IMG/VR virus record: IMGVR_UViG_3300032038_007781
Coordinates: 32,001-96,000 of that record
DNA from: a virus
Taxonomy: Duplodnaviria > Caudoviricetes
Length of the DNA stretch: 64,000 bases
Direction: 5' to 3' (one strand)
Shown here piece after piece: positions 36,181-64,000 of this stretch. Below the pieces are notes generated by a model. It did not search any database. It was not told the DNA's origin and saw only the letters and a list, made by a program, of their open reading frames with translations. Position 1 is the first letter of the stretch, and each line of letters opens with the position of its first letter. Both the position numbers and the translations under genes were made by a program.

Positions 36181-36213
36181 AAAAAAGAAGGATTCATTTA
36201 AGAACCCTTCTTT
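36181..36213 (-). terminator. terminator, copy 1 of a duplicated 33-bp element
   Basis: AAAAAAGAAGGATTCATTTAAGAACCCTTCTTT; 29/33 identical to 37781-37813. Confidence 0.7.
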
Positions 36214-37724
36214 TATACTATTTTTTTCCATACATATTTAAATAATCCACAATCATATATTCGATAAGCACCTATTGCATGACACATTTCGCTTTCAGAC
36301 ATAGTAAGTGGCAAACCATATTTTTTATTTAATATTTGTTTCCTAAAACCAAATTTGTGCATTCTATTAATACCAAATTCTTTAGGGTAGTAATATCTAT
36401 AGTCAGGAGGTAAAATATCATCTAATTTAAAACCTAATTGAACATATATATTGTTTTCTTTTCTTAAAGTCCATCTTCTATCTGCAAATGATTTTACATT
36501 TAATGGGTTATAAGTTCTTACGAAATATTTAAATAACTTACCGCCAACGCCATTACAAATATAATTATTGATGGAAGCAAATCTTGTTAAATTCCATTGT
36601 TTTTCTTTTTCTTTTAAAAATGTCATTACACCTACAAGTAAATTATTATAAAAACAACCAAGATAAATAGTGGAATTAACAAACCCTTGTATATGATTTT
36701 TATTAAGAAATATTTCAGCAGACTCTTTATCAATTTCCCTTATAACACATTTTCTTGCCATTATTTTCGGCAAATCAGTTTCGCATTTTAAAATGTGCTT
36801 TATCTTTTGGAGAACTAAATTTTTATTATTAATATATTCATCTTCAAATATATTAATAAGAGCAATGCCATGCTCGTTACATTTATTTAATTTATTTAAA
36901 TGATAAAATTTATCATCTTTATACATTTCAGAATGCCACCTAATGCCATTATATTCTATTGCTATTTGAAGGGATGGTATGTAAATATCTAATTCAAGTC
37001 CTTTTAAAATAATTCTATCATTTTTATGTACGTTTTCTTTGCCAATAATATTGCAAACGAATTCATATATTTCATTTTCAGCTTGTGACTCTATTTTAGC
37101 ACATTTAGGACATCCTTGTTTTTGGTTTAAATGTGCATCTGGTGTCATTAAAAATTCACCATGTTCTTTACCATTACTATCTTTTTCATGGCATATTATA
37201 CTAACATATTCTTTAGCGCCTTTATATACTGATTTGCTATAATCATATTTGTCATTATGAACTAAAAATGACTGCTCTTTAAAAAAGTTAGCATCTTTTG
37301 TTAAAGATTTACGTATTTTATCTTTTTTACATTCATTGCATCCTTCCCCACACAAATGCTTATTTGGACTTATTAAAAAATCACCATGCAGTGGGCATGT
37401 AACAATTACTTTTTCTTTACTTTTTAAATATTCTGTTTTAGAATAATCATAAAAATCATTATGTATTTCTTTAGCTTTTTCTATAAATGTTTCAGTGGTA
37501 TATGTTCGTTTTTTAGCTCGTTTAATTACGCCACATTTAGGGCAACCCCTTCCTTTTAAATGCTTTTCTGGTGTTTGCAAAAATTCACCATGCATTGGAC
37601 AAATTATAGTTATTGGTTCACTACTTTTATTGAAAATTGCTTTGGAATAGTCATAAAAATCATTATGAATTTCTTTAGCTTTTTCTATAAAATCTTTAGT
37701 ACAGGCTATTCTTTTTTTTGACAT
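36213..37724 (-). CDS. Hef-like free-standing homing endonuclease with DUF723-type Zn-ribbon repeats
   Basis: Three FIEKAKxxH..YDYS..IxCxxHGEF..H..GCxxC repeats; ELDIYIP..IAIEYNG.RWH; ARKC, NHIQG, LTRFAS, SFADRRW, IYDCG. Confidence 0.85.
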   Translation of the reverse strand: MSKKRIACTKDFIEKAKEIHNDFYDYSKAIFNKSSEPITIICPMHGEFLQTPEKHLKGRGCPKCGVIKRAKKRTYTTETFIEKAKEIHNDFYDYSKTEYLKSKEKVIVTCPLHGDFLISPNKHLCGEGCNECKKDKIRKSLTKDANFFKEQSFLVHNDKYDYSKSVYKGAKEYVSIICHEKDSNGKEHGEFLMTPDAHLNQKQGCPKCAKIESQAENEIYEFVCNIIGKENVHKNDRIILKGLELDIYIPSLQIAIEYNGIRWHSEMYKDDKFYHLNKLNKCNEHGIALINIFEDEYINNKNLVLQKIKHILKCETDLPKIMARKCVIREIDKESAEIFLNKNHIQGFVNSTIYLGCFYNNLLVGVMTFLKEKEKQWNLTRFASINNYICNGVGGKLFKYFVRTYNPLNVKSFADRRWTLRKENNIYVQLGFKLDDILPPDYRYYYPKEFGINRMHKFGFRKQILNKKYGLPLTMSESEMCHAIGAYRIYDCGLFKYVWKKIV

Positions 37725-37840: not shown

Positions 37841-39823
37841 TTATCTCAATTCAGAAATATCCCAATGTACAAGACCATCAACACGTACATGACCGTAGTA
37901 ACGGTTGTTAACCATCTTCTTAGCATAACGAGTCATAATACCCTTAACAGGTGCAAAGTTGAATGGGTTGTAGATTGTAGGAGTCAACTGCATTGGTACA
38001 TATGGTGCATAGATGTAACCTGTATCAAGAAGTGACTTACCCTTGTGACCGATAATGATTGACCAATGTGGAGAATATGGGTCACGATATACTTGATAAC
38101 GACCGTTCAAAGAACCAATCTTTTCGATACCCATATTGTACTGGTCTGATTCAGCGCTTGCATCAGAAACGTGGAAGTATTCCAAGTTATCGAACAATGC
38201 AGAAATTTCAGAAGAAACTACAATGAAGTTTGCACCACCACGTAGTGTAGCTTTATGAATCTGAGCAGAAATCTGATTAATCTTTGTGAACAATTCCTGA
38301 TTCCAATCTTTCTGAGTGTAGTTAGTTGAGAATGCTGCCATACGTCTCCAACCATTTACATCCCAACGAGCCTGCCAAGGTGCACCCTTACGCAAGTCAC
38401 GAAGAATTTCACGGTCAATTTCAGCTGCAATCTGTTCAGAAAGAATAGCTGTCAATTCAGCTTCAGCATCAATGTTGTGGAATGCACTAACATCCTGAGC
38501 CAATTCAGGTGACCAAGTAGCACGTAGTTTTCTTTCTTCTACTGATACAGTTACTGAATCAAGTTTGAAAGAAACTTCACCAATTTCAGTTTCCAATTCA
38601 AGTGAATCATACTGAGCCCAAGCTACTTTAAACATTGAAGCGTCTGCTATTGCTGATGGATTAACACCAACATAACCATCAATTGTACCTGCTTGCTGAA
38701 CTACTGGTTTAGCCAAATCAAGTTCGATGTACATATAGCCTTCAGCATCGCAAGCTGAACCATATTCTACAATACCTTTACCATATTTCTGTGTAGCAAC
38801 ACGGAAAGGAACTGATTCATATTTCTTGAAAGAAGCAGTAGTAACACCACTTGCACCCTCAACTTCACCAGCTGCAATAGCCTGTGTAGTGATAACTTTC
38901 AAAGAAGCTAAGAAACCTTCAGTGTCCATTTCGTTGCCATCAGGACCTGTCAATTTAGAAGCGTTGAAGCTTGAGAAGCCACCAACTTTAAGAATTACGT
39001 TACGAACAGTACCATCGAAACCGTTAACCTGTACAGAATCACCGTCTACGAAATCTTCCATACCACGTGGAGTAAGTTTAGCAAGTTTAGCTTCACCAAC
39101 CTTGATAGTTACCTTACCCTTAGAGTTATCATACAAGAAATCGTTGTAGAACAAGTCATACAAGCTCTTTTCGAAATACTGAGTAACTTCAGGACCTGCC
39201 TGACGCAATGCAGTTACACCAAGGCCTTCAGCCTTAGCTGCTTCCAATGCTGCTTCGTAAGTAGTAGCATCTTCTGGTGTCTGATTCAACTGAGGAACAT
39301 ACCACTTTTCCTTATCCAAATCTTTGATAGTTTCATCAGGAAGATAGTAACGTGGTTCAACACGACCTTCCTTGTTACGGTTTGTACGGTCATAACCCAT
39401 CAAACCTTTGTGACGACCTGTAGTGCCATCTACGATGTCACCATCAGTTGCAGCTGATGCACCAGCAGCAGGAACTTCCCATTCTCTTTCACTTGTTACA
39501 GGAAGAATGAAGAACAATTTACCTACTGGCAAGTTCATAGCCTGAACTGAAACGATATCATTAGCAAGCAACTTGCTGAATACCCTACGGATAATAGGGA
39601 AAACTACAGTTTCAAATGAACCAGAGTTATCAGAAGCAGTGGCCTCATAAATCAAGTGCTTTGCTTCGTTTTCATACAACGTAGCGACATTTTCTTTAAT
39701 TGTACCATCAAGACCTTCAGTAAAACCTAACTGGTCCCAACGATTCTGGATGTCTTCACGTATTTTCTTTTGTGCGTTCAATTCGATATTACCAACTTGA
39801 CCGCTAGTTAAAAATTCTCTCAT
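37841..39823 (-). CDS. gp23: major capsid protein (T4 gp23-like)
   Basis: IIRRVF...IVSVQAMNLPVG, RKLRATWSPELAQD, EIDREI, TLRGGANF, YAPYVP, GIMTRYA; probable maturation site IYE60^A. Confidence 0.97.
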   Translation of the reverse strand: MREFLTSGQVGNIELNAQKKIREDIQNRWDQLGFTEGLDGTIKENVATLYENEAKHLIYEATASDNSGSFETVVFPIIRRVFSKLLANDIVSVQAMNLPVGKLFFILPVTSEREWEVPAAGASAATDGDIVDGTTGRHKGLMGYDRTNRNKEGRVEPRYYLPDETIKDLDKEKWYVPQLNQTPEDATTYEAALEAAKAEGLGVTALRQAGPEVTQYFEKSLYDLFYNDFLYDNSKGKVTIKVGEAKLAKLTPRGMEDFVDGDSVQVNGFDGTVRNVILKVGGFSSFNASKLTGPDGNEMDTEGFLASLKVITTQAIAAGEVEGASGVTTASFKKYESVPFRVATQKYGKGIVEYGSACDAEGYMYIELDLAKPVVQQAGTIDGYVGVNPSAIADASMFKVAWAQYDSLELETEIGEVSFKLDSVTVSVEERKLRATWSPELAQDVSAFHNIDAEAELTAILSEQIAAEIDREILRDLRKGAPWQARWDVNGWRRMAAFSTNYTQKDWNQELFTKINQISAQIHKATLRGGANFIVVSSEISALFDNLEYFHVSDASAESDQYNMGIEKIGSLNGRYQVYRDPYSPHWSIIIGHKGKSLLDTGYIYAPYVPMQLTPTIYNPFNFAPVKGIMTRYAKKMVNNRYYGHVRVDGLVHWDISELR

Positions 39824-56376: not shown

Positions 56377-59355
56377 TTAGGCAATATCATCAGAAGTACC
56401 TTCAATATTATCACGTCCTCTTGTATCATATTCAACATTTTGTACTACATGTGTAAAAGAACTTAATGGTCTTAGATATATTGCACCTATAGGTTTCAAT
56501 TTATTAGGGTCATATTGTATGCAATATACATATTCAACACCCAAATACGCAGATAAATCTTTATCATATAAAACTTTGTAAAGTTTACCGTTCTCCATGC
56601 TTTGCATTATTTCACCTGTTTGTATAATATAATTCCTAAGTATATCTTTTTGGCGCTTCCATTTTTTAATATATGGATTATGCTCAGAATTACCATCAGC
56701 AACTACTTCCTCAAATACATACCCTTTATTTTCATATACGTTTCTACCCATTGGCTTAATTCCTTTATCATAGAATCTATCTATCTCGCCAATCACATAT
56801 CTCCAATCAGGGTATACATATTTGACGCCAACATCACCCACCTTTTCATTATATACATCCATATATAATTCTTCATCAGAATAAGATGCTATAACTTTTC
56901 TAAGGACTTCTTTTTGCTTATAAGTTGGCTCTCTGCCAATGTCTATAGAATTAGGCATTATTCTAATGTTACCAAGTTTAATAAATTGGAATTTATCATC
57001 AATACCATTTATTCGTGTTACTTCGTTGTGTTCACCTTCAGTATATATAATGTTACCATCAGATAAAATAAAGCCCCTACAACCTTTAAAATAGTCACCG
57101 TGCCTAAATAATTGTAACGCACGATAATTTAATTCATACGGATTGTTAATATCTATAGGGCTATCTTCATACATTTCGCAAGTTTCAAATCTTCCTGTGT
57201 ATGAGAAGAAGTCGTATTTATCTATTTCGCCTTTTTGTATGAAAGTGTTAAGCATTTTTTCAGCCCAATCTTCACCAAAAATATCTACCAAATCATCCCA
57301 ATCAACACTATCACCACCACAATATTGATAATATTCATTATCATAATATGTTAATTCAAAAGTAGGGAATTCGTTTTTAACATATGCAGCTAAAACTTCA
57401 TTGCTATTTTCAAGCCCATTTTCTTCAAGATATTCTTTATAATCATCTTGGTCAATTGATAATTCCCATTCTATCGCACCTACTTTTGATAAATCTACTG
57501 AAGCAGATTCATTTATTATTCTACTTTCGGTGATAGAATTAAGCTTATCATACAATTTGCTTGAAATGTCCCATAACTTATCAAGATATTCAGTTCTCCT
57601 TAATACCTTATATATAATATTATATGGGTCAGTTTCACCTCCACGCTTTAAACCTAATTTACGCATTGATTTAATCTTATTCAACAATTTGTGTGTCTTC
57701 TTACCAATTTTTCTTAGTTGTGCATCATCATTTGTGGAATTCATTAAATCAATATAATCATCAATTTTAGTCATTATTTTTGATGATTTAAGTTTAATTT
57801 CTTTACTGTCAGGTGCAATGGAATGTATATCATTCGGGTTAGGCTTTTTTATCCAATTATTGTCTTCCAAATCATACAACCCACCAGATTCAGTTTCAGC
57901 ATTTATATCTTCTACGTATACTTCAACATTGAAGCCATAAATTTTTAACCCTTCATGTTCATTATTCCATTCATTCTTTTTTGAATTGAAATATTCTTGA
58001 ACAAAATTTGTCCTTTCATCAACTTCAGAAAAATCTACAATTATGTGCAAATCAATGTCTGAAAATTTAGACCAATTGTAATTACAAATTGAGCCTGTTA
58101 AAATAATGCCTTTTCTTTTAACCCAATTAATGTTAACAGTTTCCCAAAAATCATCAGCAATATCTAATAGTTTTAGCCTTACTTTAGAATTTAATTTATC
58201 ACCTTTCCAAATTTTAGGTGCTAAAGTATCTTCTTTTTTAAAAGAGTCAAGGCTTACCTCATCAGCACTAACTTCTAATTCTTGATTTTCTTCGATATTT
58301 TGTTCTACGTGAAAATATTCATTGTTACCACCATCGCCTTCAGCACCTATATACCCATCAGGTTTAGACTCTTTTATTTGGCAATATTTGCTGTTAAAAT
58401 ATTCTTGAGGTGTATAAAATTCCTTCCCATCCATTCCGTCTATGCAAATGCTTTTAATAGCATTTGGGTAAATAACGCCACGATACCCTATTTTTGTATA
58501 TTTAACAGGATTTTCTTTTTTATCAATAACATTTGCTTTATGATAATCAGTATAGTCTATGCCATTTTTTTCCATTTGGCTGTTATATACATTATCAAAT
58601 CTTTCATTTGCGTAAGAATTATATGCATCGTAGTCAAACACAAATTTATTTTCATCAAGTTTATCACCATCAAATTCTATAACACAAGGATAAAATTTTT
58701 TTTCATTGATTGGCATATCACCAGAAACAATAGAAGCATATTCCATTGCAATATCAAAATTTGATGTTATGAACACAGTATCACTATGCTTAATACTCCA
58801 TCTACTTTTTTCAGGGTTACTTCTTAACCCCTTTTTAAGTATTCCTTCTGCAAATCTTAAAGCAGTGCCATGATAAAAAGATTTTGGCTTTTCTATATTT
58901 CTATTTATTTGTGAAGTTTTTATTTCTTTAGACCCATAATAAACATTTACATAATCTAAGTTAAACATTTTATTTAATGAATAGAGTTCAGTAGAGTTTA
59001 AAACATTATATGTGCTATTAGGTGTGATTTCTAAAGTATTACCATAGAAACAACCTGTTACAAGTCTTGGGAAATTAGAACCTAATATTTTTGTATATTT
59101 TTCAATATCATGATTTTCAATTGCTATATCTAAATCATTTAAATAATCCTTCAATTCACTCTTATGACTATTTAGCATGTTTTTTAATGATAATGGGTTA
59201 TCATCTGTGTATATAGCAATATCACCTTTATATAAAGCAAAATAAAACACACCATTATTTGAACCCATGTCTGAATCTGGATTCAAATTAAGCTCGTTTA
59301 TTATACTTTCTCTTAATTTTAAAAGCTTATGTTCATTTAATATTATTTTTTTCAT
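56377..59355 (-). CDS. leader-tagged polyprotein: ART/Tpt1-like, Pol-beta-type nucleotidyltransferase and further domains
   Basis: MKKIILNE...IINE leader; FYHGT...ILKKGL...VFITS...AMEYA; LTGSICNYNWSKFSDIDLHI...EVYVED; GFILSDG domain. Confidence 0.7.
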   Translation of the reverse strand: MKKIILNEHKLLKLRESIINELNLNPDSDMGSNNGVFYFALYKGDIAIYTDDNPLSLKNMLNSHKSELKDYLNDLDIAIENHDIEKYTKILGSNFPRLVTGCFYGNTLEITPNSTYNVLNSTELYSLNKMFNLDYVNVYYGSKEIKTSQINRNIEKPKSFYHGTALRFAEGILKKGLRSNPEKSRWSIKHSDTVFITSNFDIAMEYASIVSGDMPINEKKFYPCVIEFDGDKLDENKFVFDYDAYNSYANERFDNVYNSQMEKNGIDYTDYHKANVIDKKENPVKYTKIGYRGVIYPNAIKSICIDGMDGKEFYTPQEYFNSKYCQIKESKPDGYIGAEGDGGNNEYFHVEQNIEENQELEVSADEVSLDSFKKEDTLAPKIWKGDKLNSKVRLKLLDIADDFWETVNINWVKRKGIILTGSICNYNWSKFSDIDLHIIVDFSEVDERTNFVQEYFNSKKNEWNNEHEGLKIYGFNVEVYVEDINAETESGGLYDLEDNNWIKKPNPNDIHSIAPDSKEIKLKSSKIMTKIDDYIDLMNSTNDDAQLRKIGKKTHKLLNKIKSMRKLGLKRGGETDPYNIIYKVLRRTEYLDKLWDISSKLYDKLNSITESRIINESASVDLSKVGAIEWELSIDQDDYKEYLEENGLENSNEVLAAYVKNEFPTFELTYYDNEYYQYCGGDSVDWDDLVDIFGEDWAEKMLNTFIQKGEIDKYDFFSYTGRFETCEMYEDSPIDINNPYELNYRALQLFRHGDYFKGCRGFILSDGNIIYTEGEHNEVTRINGIDDKFQFIKLGNIRIMPNSIDIGREPTYKQKEVLRKVIASYSDEELYMDVYNEKVGDVGVKYVYPDWRYVIGEIDRFYDKGIKPMGRNVYENKGYVFEEVVADGNSEHNPYIKKWKRQKDILRNYIIQTGEIMQSMENGKLYKVLYDKDLSAYLGVEYVYCIQYDPNKLKPIGAIYLRPLSSFTHVVQNVEYDTRGRDNIEGTSDDIA

Positions 59356-60557: not shown

Positions 60558-60565
60558 GAAAAAAA

Positions 60566-60600
60566 TAAAAGCGAAGCCTTATTCAAGCTTCGCTTTTATT
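60566..60600. terminator. bidirectional terminator
   Basis: ATAAAAGCGAAGC...GCTTCGCTTTTAT. Confidence 0.8.
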
Positions 60601-61581
60601 TTACCCAACACTTAAAGGTGCTTTTATCGTACTATCACTTTTATAGTTTTCTATTATAAAATCTTCATATTTGAAGTCATCTATATCATCAATTTTTCTC
60701 CCAAATTTTAAAGTAGGTAATGTATCAAACCCTTTCCTTGTTAATTGTTCATCAACAGCTTTCATTTGGTTACAGTAAATATGAGTATCACCTAAATCAG
60801 CAATCAATTCATCTGGCACCATACCAACAACTTCTGCAATCATATATGTTAGTGCTGCATAACTTGCTATATTAAACGGTAGTCCTAAAAAGCTATCTAC
60901 GCTTCTTTGCGTCCATTTACAACTTAGCCCATATTTTCCATCATTTAATTCACGAACATAGAATTGAAACATTACATGACAAGGAGGTAGTGCCATTTCA
61001 TCTAAATCCGATGGGTTAAATGCAACGCAAAGTAGTCTTCTATCATTAGGATTTGTTTTTAACGTGTCTATTATCTTCTTTATTTGGTCAACACCACTAT
61101 TACCAAATCTTCTCCATTGTTTACCATATACAGGACCTAAATCACCATAAATATATCGCATTCTATACCCATCAGGACTATATAGTAAATCTTCAAATCC
61201 TTCTTCGGAAACTTTTTTAATAAATTCATCTTTATTTAGTGCGACTTTAACGTCATTATCTAACGCATTTGTAAGTGAATTGTGTTTTTTTATTAATGAC
61301 TTATAATGTCTATAAGCATCATCATCCCATATATGTACGTTTTTATCTGTTAAAGCCTTTATGTTAGTAGAACCGCTTATAAACCATAATAATTCTTCTA
61401 TAACACCTCTATAAAAGACTTTTTTGGTTGTTAGTAATGGAAACCCTTCTTTTAAATTAAATCGCATTGTACGTGAAAATACTGATAGTACATCACCACT
61501 TCTTGTTGATTTTAAAACCCCATTATTTTTAATGTCAGTAAGTAAATTTAAATATTGCTTATCTACGTTGTTCATATCCAT
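60601..61581 (-). CDS. thyA: thymidylate synthase
   Basis: FPLLTTKK, ELLWF, IWD, DLGPVYGKQWR, MALPPCH, QRSVDSFLGLPFNIASY, GDTHIY. Confidence 0.97.
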   Translation of the reverse strand: MDMNNVDKQYLNLLTDIKNNGVLKSTRSGDVLSVFSRTMRFNLKEGFPLLTTKKVFYRGVIEELLWFISGSTNIKALTDKNVHIWDDDAYRHYKSLIKKHNSLTNALDNDVKVALNKDEFIKKVSEEGFEDLLYSPDGYRMRYIYGDLGPVYGKQWRRFGNSGVDQIKKIIDTLKTNPNDRRLLCVAFNPSDLDEMALPPCHVMFQFYVRELNDGKYGLSCKWTQRSVDSFLGLPFNIASYAALTYMIAEVVGMVPDELIADLGDTHIYCNQMKAVDEQLTRKGFDTLPTLKFGRKIDDIDDFKYEDFIIENYKSDSTIKAPLSVG

Positions 61582-62053
61582 TACTTTCTTTATTATCAAT
61601 AACTTGCGACACAAACGCCATAATCATATGGTTATTTAAAATAAATTCGCCTTTGTTTTTTAGACAATGCTTATGACAATGTTTACTTACTTCACTGTCT
61701 ATTTCATCTATCCATTCTGACCAATTATTGTCTATTTTTTGAATTAACCCACTTGGGGAATGCCTGCTAACATAATTTTCTAAAAACTCATTTCTACGCT
61801 CTTTAGACGGATAAAATAAATCATAATCAATTCCTTCAATTTCCAACGCATCACGTACTTCTTTGTGCGATGATACAAAAATTATATCATTATCTGCTAT
61901 ATTATCTTTTATATGCTTGATATAATTTGAAGGAAAATCATCTTTATTAAATTTACTAGAATCACTATCTAATATTTTAATTTTGTCTTTTAAGGCATTA
62001 AAAGCATAACTTTTTCCCATACCAGGGAAAGCACTAATTACAATTGCACTCAT
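61559..62053 (-). CDS. P-loop (kinase-like) protein
   Basis: ISAFPGMGKS, DSDSS, FPSNY, VSSH. Confidence 0.7.
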   Translation of the reverse strand: MSAIVISAFPGMGKSYAFNALKDKIKILDSDSSKFNKDDFPSNYIKHIKDNIADNDIIFVSSHKEVRDALEIEGIDYDLFYPSKERRNEFLENYVSRHSPSGLIQKIDNNWSEWIDEIDSEVSKHCHKHCLKNKGEFILNNHMIMAFVSQVIDNKESNGYEQRR

Positions 62054-62063
62054 ATTTTTTTAT

Positions 62064-62222
62064 TTAAAAATCAATATAAAATAAATTACCTGTTGGTTTA
62101 TTCATTTCTATAACATTAACGATTTCATTTTCAATCATCGTTGAATAGAATCTATGAAATAATCTATCAACAATAGTTTTACCAACATATAAATTGCTTA
62201 TGTTAATATTTAACGATTTCAT
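62064..62222 (-). CDS. 52-aa major-capsid-fragment homologue (Gol-region mimic), not in the ORF track
   Basis: MKSLNINISNLYVGKTIVDRLFHRFYSTMIENEIVNVIEMNKPTGNLFYIDF; ATGA-coupled to the upstream gene; 15/37 ungapped identities to gp23 residues 72-108. Confidence 0.8.
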   Translation of the reverse strand: MKSLNINISNLYVGKTIVDRLFHRFYSTMIENEIVNVIEMNKPTGNLFYIDF

Positions 62223-62485
62223 TTCTCATAGTCATAAGGTTTGTTATTAGCAATAGCATCAGACTTTTGCGTAATTTCCCAAGCATATTCATCATCAGAT
62301 ATGTTCCAACTATTATTAGACATTAAATATTGCGCTATTTCTTTGTCTATTTCTTCTTTAATTTGTGGCGTTAATAAATCACTAAGAATTTGCATTGCAA
62401 CATCATTATAATTGTTATCTATCCATGATAAATCTGACTTATATGTTTTTGAATTTTCTATTAAATAATTGCCATTTTTTTTCAT
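62219..62485 (-). CDS. 88-aa protein with a major-capsid spine-helix-like segment
   Basis: LSDLLTPQIKEEIDKEIAQYL vs gp23 LTAILSEQIAAEIDREILRDL (10/21 identical). Confidence 0.65.
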   Translation of the reverse strand: MKKNGNYLIENSKTYKSDLSWIDNNYNDVAMQILSDLLTPQIKEEIDKEIAQYLMSNNSWNISDDEYAWEITQKSDAIANNKPYDYEK

Positions 62486-62494
62486 AATTTTATA

Positions 62495-62959
62495 TTAAAC
62501 TTTAATCTTAACATTGAACCCTACAGCACTAAGAATATCTTTAACTATATCTTCATATGAAGATTCATTTGCATTTTTTATACTATATAATTCATTATTC
62601 TTGTTGTCAAGGATTCTAAAACTGCTGCTATCAAATGATTCTATTTGAAGTCCATTACCTGTTCTAAATTCATACTCTTCGTTAATTAAATTTAAATCTG
62701 CATTGGGTAATTTTGTAAATTGATAACCTTTTGATTTAATAAATTTGTTTAGTGCTTTACCCTGTGAATCATCTTCTCTAAACATTAAATAATCTCTAAC
62801 GTCAACATCATCGTATTGATATTGTGTACCGTTAGAAAATACTACTTTTAATGTCTTAGGTTTATTATCGTTATCAATGCATTCTGAATATTTTATATTA
62901 CTGCTTTGATACCATACTTTGTCAACATCATCTTCATAATAATTAAATAATTTACTCAT
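62495..62959 (-). CDS. KTSC domain protein
   Basis: SSNIKY...TLKVVFSNGTQYQYDDV...Y..F...DSQGKALNKFIK. Confidence 0.85.
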   Translation of the reverse strand: MSKLFNYYEDDVDKVWYQSSNIKYSECIDNDNKPKTLKVVFSNGTQYQYDDVDVRDYLMFREDDSQGKALNKFIKSKGYQFTKLPNADLNLINEEYEFRTGNGLQIESFDSSSFRILDNKNNELYSIKNANESSYEDIVKDILSAVGFNVKIKV

Positions 62960-63135: not shown

Positions 63136-64000
63136 ATGAGTGAAAACAAAAACGATATTTATTCTTATGAACTACAGGGTGTATTGACATATATGGTTGA
63201 TATCCTTGTAAATGAATTTCCAACTGAGATTTTTACACCTGAATACTTAATGGTTTCAATTCTTGATACAAAGAATTGTCACGCAAATATGATACTTGAC
63301 AATTGTTTAATGTCCAATAATATGTATGAACTAAAAGAAATTTATATAAACGTATTAAAGGAGCATTCTAAACCAATTGTAAAAAATAAAGATAATGGTA
63401 AAGTAAACTTTGATTTTGAGCTAAATAAAATTTTAGAAAATGCTGAAAAAGAAATGACAGCAACAGGTTCTAAAAAAGTTGGTACTGAACACGTATTACT
63501 TTCCATTTTAAACCCATCTAACGAAATTAAAATTAAGGATGTATTCAAAACGGTAGGGATTGAATATAGCTTTATTTTAGATAAATGCAGTGAAGACAAA
63601 GTTAAACCAAAACATACACCAAAAGCAATAAGGCCTAAAGGCTTTATCAGTAATAAAATTGGTAATTCGCTTAAACCAGCTATTTTCCCTCTAAAAAGTG
63701 AAGTAAATACTTCAAGCGTTGTAACAAAAGACGAATATGTGTCAAAGTTTACAACTAATTTGAATGAATTGGCTAAGAACGGTAAAATTGATGAACTTGT
63801 AGGAAGGGAAGACGAAATTAATGAAATTATCAAGGTGCTTGCGAGAAGAAAGAAAAACAACGTAATTCTTGTAGGTAATGGCGGTGTAGGTAAAACTGAA
63901 ATTGTGTATGGGTTGGCATCTATGATTTCAAAAGGTAATGTACCATCAATACTTGAAGGTAAAGAAATTGTTATGATTGATATTATGGCAATTGTTTCTG
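63136..64000 (+). CDS. ClpB/ClpC-family AAA+ chaperone, truncated by the window end
   Basis: Own translation: Clp_N repeats (TPEYLMVSIL, GTEHVLLSIL), GKIDELVGREDEI, LARRKKNN, Walker A GNGGVGKT. Confidence 0.93.
   Translation, partial: MSENKNDIYSYELQGVLTYMVDILVNEFPTEIFTPEYLMVSILDTKNCHANMILDNCLMSNNMYELKEIYINVLKEHSKPIVKNKDNGKVNFDFELNKILENAEKEMTATGSKKVGTEHVLLSILNPSNEIKIKDVFKTVGIEYSFILDKCSEDKVKPKHTPKAIRPKGFISNKIGNSLKPAIFPLKSEVNTSSVVTKDEYVSKFTTNLNELAKNGKIDELVGREDEINEIIKVLARRKKNNVILVGNGGVGKTEIVYGLASMISKGNVPSILEGKEIVMIDIMAIVS

Follow-up and report, generated by a model that had tools for sequence, protein, structure and literature searches.

The window, that is, the whole stretch of DNA analyzed here, comprises 64,000 nt and corresponds to positions 32,001-96,000 of the IMG/VR record IMGVR_UViG_3300032038_007781 (Caudoviricetes). 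The source record (G000) is 126 kb long, with 31% G+C and an estimated completeness of 36%, and the host of the gene pair described below is a giant cattle-gut phage. The pair sits within a cluster of genes on the minus strand that starts with a KTSC-domain gene and ends with thyA; the capsid gene that it resembles lies elsewhere in the window:

62495-62959, minus strand: KTSC-domain gene, first in the same-strand cluster (PF13619, E = 1.7e-9)
62219-62485, minus strand: 88-aa ORF with an ATG start, encoding an acidic, lineage-restricted small protein
62423-62470, minus strand: residues 6-21 of the 88-aa ORF (NYLIENSKTYKSDLSW), its most conserved patch, without a capsid match
62276-62386, minus strand: residues 34-70 of the 88-aa ORF, a diverged look-alike of residues 457-493 of the major capsid protein (MCP), covering the spine helix and the next loop (BLASTP, profile, hhalign)
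62219-62222, minus strand: ATGA overlap between the TGA stop of the 88-aa ORF and the ATG of the 52-aa ORF
62064-62222, minus strand: 52-aa ORF, the partner mini-gene
62073-62180, minus strand: part of the 52-aa ORF (residues 15-50) resembling MCP 71-106 (T4 gp23 about 93-127, presumably the N-arm/Gol region)
61559-62053, minus strand: P-loop protein gene (phrog_4182)
60601-61614, minus strand: thyA (thymidylate synthase), last gene of the cluster (Pfam, E = 1e-97)
60562-60602, minus strand: terminator-like hairpin with an 18-bp stem, 3' of thyA
37841-39823, minus strand: the phage's own gp23-type MCP, 660 aa (Pfam Gp23, E = 7e-65), the presumed template of both look-alikes

The gap between the KTSC gene and the P-loop gene measures 441 nt and is filled by the two mini-ORFs, leaving spacers of only 9 nt (from the KTSC gene to the 88-aa ORF) and 10 nt (from the 52-aa stop to the start of the P-loop gene). 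A preliminary description of this DNA had placed the 88-aa gene directly beside the 52-aa gene, and this is confirmed at 62219-62485 on the minus strand, where the two share the ATGA overlap and would, judging from that overlap, be translationally coupled. No terminator-like site was found between the KTSC gene and thyA. Sigma-70-like promoters are not in excess (18 counted versus 23.6 expected), and an Rfam search at E values up to 1 gave chance-level matches only, none of them within the ORF pair.

In one metatranscriptomic run, contigs span 62037-62245 and 62221-62482 with 0 differences, and they include parts of thyA and the P-loop gene; they give neither strand nor level, and carried-over DNA is possible. 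We infer that the pair is expressed, and take the RNA-library contigs as a hint only. Contigs that skip the KTSC gene match on one side over only 20-21 nt and are not relied on.

The MCP gene is located about 22 kb from the mini-ORF pair. When the MCP is aligned with T4 gp23 chains, its residue 414 corresponds to T4 gp23 residue 247, its residues 457-477 to T4 290-310, and its residues 457-493 to T4 290-326. The segment in question is accordingly the long backbone (spine) helix of the HK97 fold, as had been proposed. Toward the N-terminus, MCP residues 72-111 pair with 28-67 in the mature T4 chain, which in precursor numbering is about 93-132; we take T4 gp23 residues of about 93-127 to be the N-arm/Gol neighborhood. 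Pfam Gp23 revealed no gp24-like vertex paralogue in G000 or in the relatives G005 and G006, all of which are incomplete records (36%, 80% and 25%, respectively). Immediately downstream of the capsid gene is a gene for a 503-aa HNH homing endonuclease (36213-37724, minus strand; phrog_559, E = 9e-108); any connection between this endonuclease and the ectopic capsid slices is speculative.

Judged by sequence comparison, the capsid likeness of the 52-aa ORF is much firmer than that of the 88-aa ORF. The 52-aa protein is identical to the MCP at 15/36 positions in BLASTP (pairwise E = 2e-8), none of 5000 shuffles reached its score against the MCP (0/5000), Pfam Gp23 matches it with an E value of 0.0043, and hhalign assigns a probability of 85%. 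For the 88-aa protein, the similarity to its own MCP stands above the background of the genome's ORFs, with a modest signal. This is one of the marks of what may informally be called capsid-slice mini-genes, small ORFs remote from the capsid gene that each copy one slice of the phage's own MCP. Residues 34-54 agree with MCP 457-477 at 10/21 positions, exactly as described before, the gp23 of that description being the phage's own MCP. The BLASTP alignment runs on to residue 70 (residues 34-70 versus MCP 457-493, 13/37 identical, pairwise E = 2e-4), and in some homologues a colinear match is longer, with residues 22-82 corresponding to MCP 445-508 (58-64 residues).

Is the resemblance of the 88-aa protein real? 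The 88-aa protein could be an orphan with an acidic amphipathic helix (EEIDKEI, encoded by A+T-rich codons), similar to the capsid protein by chance, in which case only its 52-aa neighbor would be capsid-derived. We consider this quite improbable. The Smith-Waterman score of 57 against the MCP was equalled by just 9/5000 shuffles (mean 33.4, sd 5.0), so that the match survives the shuffled controls by which it was to be judged, although the next ORFs come near it with raw scores of 54, 53 and 50, as chance would predict. Likewise, the MCP is the best non-self match of the 88-aa protein (E = 0.012, with the runner-up at E = 1.0, among 252 ORFs of at least 60 aa in the record), and it is the best non-self match for 10/12 family members, in one consistent register, as well as in G005; chance would not readily produce this. 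A profile of the 12 homologues also finds the MCP (E = 0.0034), pairing its positions 25-64 with MCP 448-487.

The profile libraries are more ambiguous. Pfam Gp23 (PF07068) matches the 88-aa protein with 13.3 bits (E = 0.053) and does not reach its gathering cut-off of 24.4 bits, while YqbF (E = 0.042) and TSNAXIP1_N (E = 0.066) match as well as Gp23 does; moreover, Gp23 is listed for 4/12 family members (best E = 0.053) versus 6/12 for YqbF. All of this speaks for a chance origin, as do the hhalign result of the 88-aa family against an alignment of six diverse MCPs (P = 4.2e-4, probability 34%) and a 12-nt repeat expansion (EIEN) in 3/12 members, which marks the helix as low-complexity. Chance would not so easily explain why the sole PHROGs match, phrog_138 (major head protein; E = 0.081, sub-threshold), falls on the same capsid region as the Pfam match, the two being independent profile libraries. 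The Pfam match itself spans profile positions 170-198 of 376, a part and not the whole of the HK97 fold with its N-arm, E-loop, P and A domains.

Searches of larger collections returned no capsid protein, a further point in favor of chance. With phmmer against 1.8 billion representatives, five matches were obtained, namely two family clusters and three repeat proteins. Profile searches of the PDB with the 88-aa and 52-aa families gave no capsid chain (best matches ThiS, E = 0.28, and myosin, E = 0.73). NCBIfam listed nothing meaningful, a tblastn search of 50,697 phage records with the 88-aa protein as query gave a single irrelevant match (E = 7), a genome-contig search gave no match, and the ESM Atlas gave no usable one. 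AlphaFold2 predicts a three-helix bundle for the 88-aa protein with a pLDDT of 55, which makes the model too uncertain for a fold search.

The strongest argument against chance comes from the reverse comparison. When the record's 1086 ORFs of at least 25 aa were searched against the MCP, the 52-aa ORF was the first non-self match (35.4 bits) and the 88-aa ORF the second (26.2 bits), ahead of a third at 23.5 bits among the 1085 non-self ORFs. The two top scorers are thus overlapping neighbors, and the earlier claim of a two-gene capsid look-alike pair stands. In the relative G005 (80% complete, 2485 ORFs), the homologues of the pair take ranks 2 and 4 in a comparison with a six-MCP profile, the 88-aa homologue being the one at rank 2 of 2485. 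No further capsid look-alike ORF was found among the 2485 ORFs of G005, so the "set" of structural epitopes proposed in the preliminary description shrinks to these two. The mini-proteins are not versions of one another: hhalign of the 88-aa against the 52-aa family alignment shows no profile similarity (probability 0.3%), and no tag or leader shared by the mini-ORFs with each other or with other ORFs was found among the 1086 ORFs of the record. Taken together, the comparisons make it likely that the 88-aa slice is truly capsid-derived, and the resemblance of both mini-proteins to capsid slices is probably real. The 88-aa protein, which scores below the family cut-off, contains only some 40-60 residues of a fold that exceeds 400, and so cannot build a capsid.

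In a large protein collection, the 88-aa family consists of 12 protein clusters with 60-100% identity, found on contigs of up to 354 kb. Three distinct DNA copies of the locus are available, those of the window (the same as L005), of L004 (the same as L007) and of L006, and in 3/3 the order KTSC gene, 88-aa homologue, 52-aa region, P-loop gene and thyA is kept. Among 80 viral loci with a homologue of the P-loop gene, the pair is present only on the L004 contig and absent from 79; its distribution is limited to a narrow clade of phages. In L010, the next closest relative (P-loop protein 69% identical), the pair is absent, and its slot is occupied by an N6/N4 DNA methyltransferase together with an unrelated ORF of 56 aa. 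(The L010 slot lies at 1803-2982 on the plus strand, and the 56-aa ORF begins MIPSFMNMPNGDLF, recalling the capsid motif MNxPxGxLF. As a capsid look-alike, this ORF was rejected: it gives no BLASTP alignment to the MCP, and its MNMPNGDLF matches the 52-aa ORF with a pairwise E of 0.004.)

Some minor variants occur among the relatives. Run X3 has TGG in place of the TGA stop of the 88-aa ORF, a change that extends the protein by WNR and keeps the ATG of the 52-aa ORF; the same +WNR extension is present in 4/12 protein clusters. P0006 and P0137, which are homologues of both mini-proteins encoded on one 38.9-kb contig, are labeled by NCBI as Methanosphaera MAG proteins, and this is probably a phage contig that was binned into a Methanosphaera MAG. 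The Clp-type ATPase on the far side of the KTSC gene (63136-63999 of the window, plus strand) is 855 aa long in L006 (825-3392, minus strand), and in L004 (1455-3338, minus strand) it is 627 aa long and turns into an unrelated tail shortly past the second P-loop.

Conservation along the 88-aa protein is uneven. Among the nine full-length members, 13/16 columns are invariant in residues 6-21, 8/21 in the look-alike segment 34-54, 0/16 in residues 55-70 and 10/18 in the tail 71-88, which, like the N-terminal patch, is without a capsid match. The capsid look-alike is therefore only moderately conserved, with an EEIDxE core that is invariant in all nine; across the whole family, EIDxE[IL] is kept in 11/12 homologues, in line with the conservation on which the original match had been made to depend. 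The exception is P0013, where the motif was lost by a deletion that leaves a 58-aa fusion, in which residues 1-44 of the 88-aa protein are followed by the C-terminal tail of its 52-aa partner. In the 52-aa ORF, it is the C-terminal PTGxLFYIDF that is invariant, in the four intact copies.

These patterns have to be weighed against a less likely but serious alternative, namely that the pair is an eroding relic. Pieces of a capsid gene, left for instance by a partial duplication (in tandem or rearranged) or acquired from a different T4-like phage, would then lie without function in a variable slot and drift toward loss, the ORFs being open only because the insertion is young compared with the divergence sampled. 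Substitution rates fit such a relic well. The dN/dS of the 88-aa ORF is 0.67-0.90, versus 0.02-0.18 in the KTSC, P-loop and thyA genes, and its dS (0.07-0.22) is at the level of the flanking genes (0.13-0.29), so that overall the 88-aa ORF is indistinguishable from neutral; for the 52-aa ORF, dN/dS is about 0.9. Such averages sit beside patches that a relic would not be expected to retain. Codons 6-21 differ between the window and L004 at 2/48 nt, where neutral divergence is about 20%, and the last 15 codons of the 52-aa ORF show only two changes in 45 nt; along with the tail of the 88-aa protein, these nearly unchanged patches adjoin stretches that are about 20% diverged.

The reading frames give a similarly divided picture. 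The 52-aa frame is broken by a 1-nt deletion in L006 (one of the three distinct DNA copies), and its start is changed by a 1-nt indel in L004. Together with the P0013 fusion and the methyltransferase that occupies the slot in L010, the broken frame is what erosion would leave behind. On the other hand, M1 and the frame of the 88-aa ORF are intact in 3/3 distinct DNA copies, and the indels inside it are exclusively in-frame (+12 and -24 nt). When the 42 observed substitutions were simulated under neutrality, the frame stayed open in 4.1% of 5000 trials, and neither this nor the exact tiling of the gap with its ATGA overlap is readily expected of a relic.

The relation of the slices to their parent bears on their age. 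At the DNA level they are identical to the capsid gene at 52/111 nt (47%) and 61/108 nt (56%), and the longest common word is 10 nt, which excludes a recent copy of the capsid gene or an antisense relation to it. Their G+C content has fallen to 27% and 21%, versus 40% in the MCP gene; with the low DNA identity, this implies that the copy is old, or that it drifts fast, and a drift in composition is again what a relic would undergo. The MCP segment 400-560 is 97-100% identical across all 120 clusters listed. Being near-invariant, it offers no change for the mini-genes to follow, and the narrowness of their own family (12 clusters) next to such a parent also suits a relic. So, too, may the identity of the slices, since profile searches find relics best at the most conserved segments of the parent. 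Their arrangement, by contrast, is awkward for a relic. As the preliminary description stated, the two segments are some 350 residues apart in gp23 (351, between MCP 71-106 and 457-493) and occur here in reverse order, about 32 residues apart. A single decayed gp23 duplicate is thus no explanation, as had been argued on the same grounds, and a relic of any kind would need extra rearrangements.

A similar design is found in G007, a complete, unrelated T4-like record of 315 kb, in which the P-loop homologue is only 47% identical and a gp24-like paralogue is present. Two loci are of interest:

L098:1450-1674, plus strand: 74-aa ORF, a Gol-region look-alike (Pfam Gp23, E = 2.8e-4)
L122:15795-16333, plus strand: ATGA-coupled 69-aa and 110-aa ORFs with BLASTP matches to the phage's own MCP

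The 74-aa ORF gave 83 tblastn matches in phage records, of which 82 are capsid or head-vertex genes. (A match in an Aeromonas phage was rejected as a mini-ORF, as it resides in a 259-aa protein.) At L122, the 69-aa ORF is identical to MCP 226-280 of G007 at 20/55 positions (E = 2e-6) and the 110-aa ORF to MCP 241-275 at 15/35 (E = 1e-4), both within the strand and spine-helix region, and Pfam does not list Gp23 for either. Upstream of the helix, the 110-aa ORF also resembles the Gol region, weakly and below significance, and the order is that of the capsid protein; L139 and L140, weak relatives of this ORF, are uninformative. Since neither ORF shares homology with the 88-aa ORF apart from the EIDKE motif (pairwise E = 0.035), the coupled spine-helix mini-ORF design has arisen at least twice. 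Its independent presence in G007 argues against both a chance resemblance and a functionless relic in the cattle-gut phage.

What might such proteins do? The reading that we prefer, and to which we give about an even chance, takes the 88-aa ORF for a real, rapidly evolving accessory gene and the pair for capsid-slice mini-proteins under weak and patchy selection, which would mimic unassembled capsid protein toward a putative partner. Scrambled pieces of the capsid gene would have been captured in a variable slot. The middle of the 88-aa protein (from about residue 22 or 34 to 70 or 82) would be an old, diverged slice containing the start of the HK97-fold spine helix, bordered on the N-terminal side by a strongly conserved patch of 16 residues and on the C-terminal side by a conserved tail, both without a capsid match, and the 52-aa partner would be a copy of the slice equivalent to the N-arm and Gol. 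Weak selection, acting in patches, would now maintain the pieces as small helical proteins resembling capsid protein that is not yet assembled. The candidate partner that we favor most would be a host sensor of conserved capsid surfaces; second would come the machinery for gp23 folding and translation (GroEL with its co-chaperonin, EF-Tu), and third the prohead scaffold.

A decoy role, as suggested in the preliminary description, would be attractive, because capsid proteins are known to trigger defense and because the neighbor of one G007 mini-ORF is Tad2-like; a role in capsid folding or assembly would be equally plausible, because the spine helix holds gp31-bypass sites. A more ambitious version, tentative and in our estimate unlikely, would be that T4-like giant phages repeatedly evolve early-expressed, single-slice capsid mini-proteins as trigger decoys, the 88/52 pair being a coupled, two-epitope instance of such counter-defense. 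The mini-proteins would then occupy immune sensors, or those surfaces of EF-Tu or the chaperonin that are watched, before the real capsid protein appears.

The closest precedent is the exclusion system of Gol, EF-Tu and Lit (prophage e14). According to its description, Gol is a region of 29 residues in the first quarter of T4 gp23, the most conserved part of the protein, and the isolated 29-residue peptide suffices for activity and binds domains II and III of EF-Tu (PMC3014915). The likeness lies in a short, conserved piece of gp23 that, in that account, is active alone, and the 52-aa ORF aligns with the equivalent region. Unlike the mini-genes, Gol is part of full-length gp23, whereas here a separate gene is involved; furthermore, the 88-aa ORF maps not to the Gol region but to the spine helix (T4 290-326).

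T4 gp23 and gp24 (PF07068; PDB 5vf3, 7vs5 and 1yue) are comparable in that the 88-aa ORF is locally similar to their spine-helix segment, which in T4 gp23 holds the gp31-bypass sites 292, 306 and 307. Unlike these proteins, the 88-aa ORF represents only the fraction of the fold given above, and gp24, for its part, is a full-length paralogue. The rationale for a capsid decoy is provided by CapRelSJ46, since capsid proteins directly trigger bacterial immunity in that system, as reported (PMC9712102). It is provided also by Tad2 (PF11195), since the stop of an 87-aa Tad2-like gene (E = 1.2e-26) forms an ATGA overlap with the Gol-region mini-ORF of G007. The pair in this window differs in this respect: its neighbors are the KTSC-domain gene, the P-loop protein, thyA and the Clp-type ATPase, and no known defense or anti-defense gene was found beside it with Pfam and PHROGs.

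Full-text literature searches returned no description of capsid-fragment mini-genes or capsid decoys. Capsid proteins belong to the known triggers of abortive-infection systems (Gol/Lit, PMC3014915; CapRel, PMC9712102). If the preferred reading is true, mini-genes that copy conserved capsid slices would offer an answer, open to direct testing, to the question of how phages hide such conserved triggers, which they cannot avoid. The partner would decide whether they serve as decoys or regulate the folding and assembly of the capsid. Such mini-genes would, moreover, illustrate how fragments of essential genes can turn into new small genes of phages. Should the pair be a relic, it would show how fast such fragments erode beside strongly constrained genes.

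Two sequence features near the pair may be added. The junction of the 88-aa and 52-aa ORFs is repeated inside the 52-aa ORF as a perfect direct repeat of 15 nt (62116-62130 and 62210-62224), which arises from four clustered changes relative to L006 and resembles a short templated conversion. Downstream of thyA, a gene at 56377-59355 (minus strand) encodes a protein of 992 aa that weakly matches nucleotidyltransferase (E = 0.0015) and PARP-catalytic (E = 0.015) domains and may be a host-modifying enzyme.
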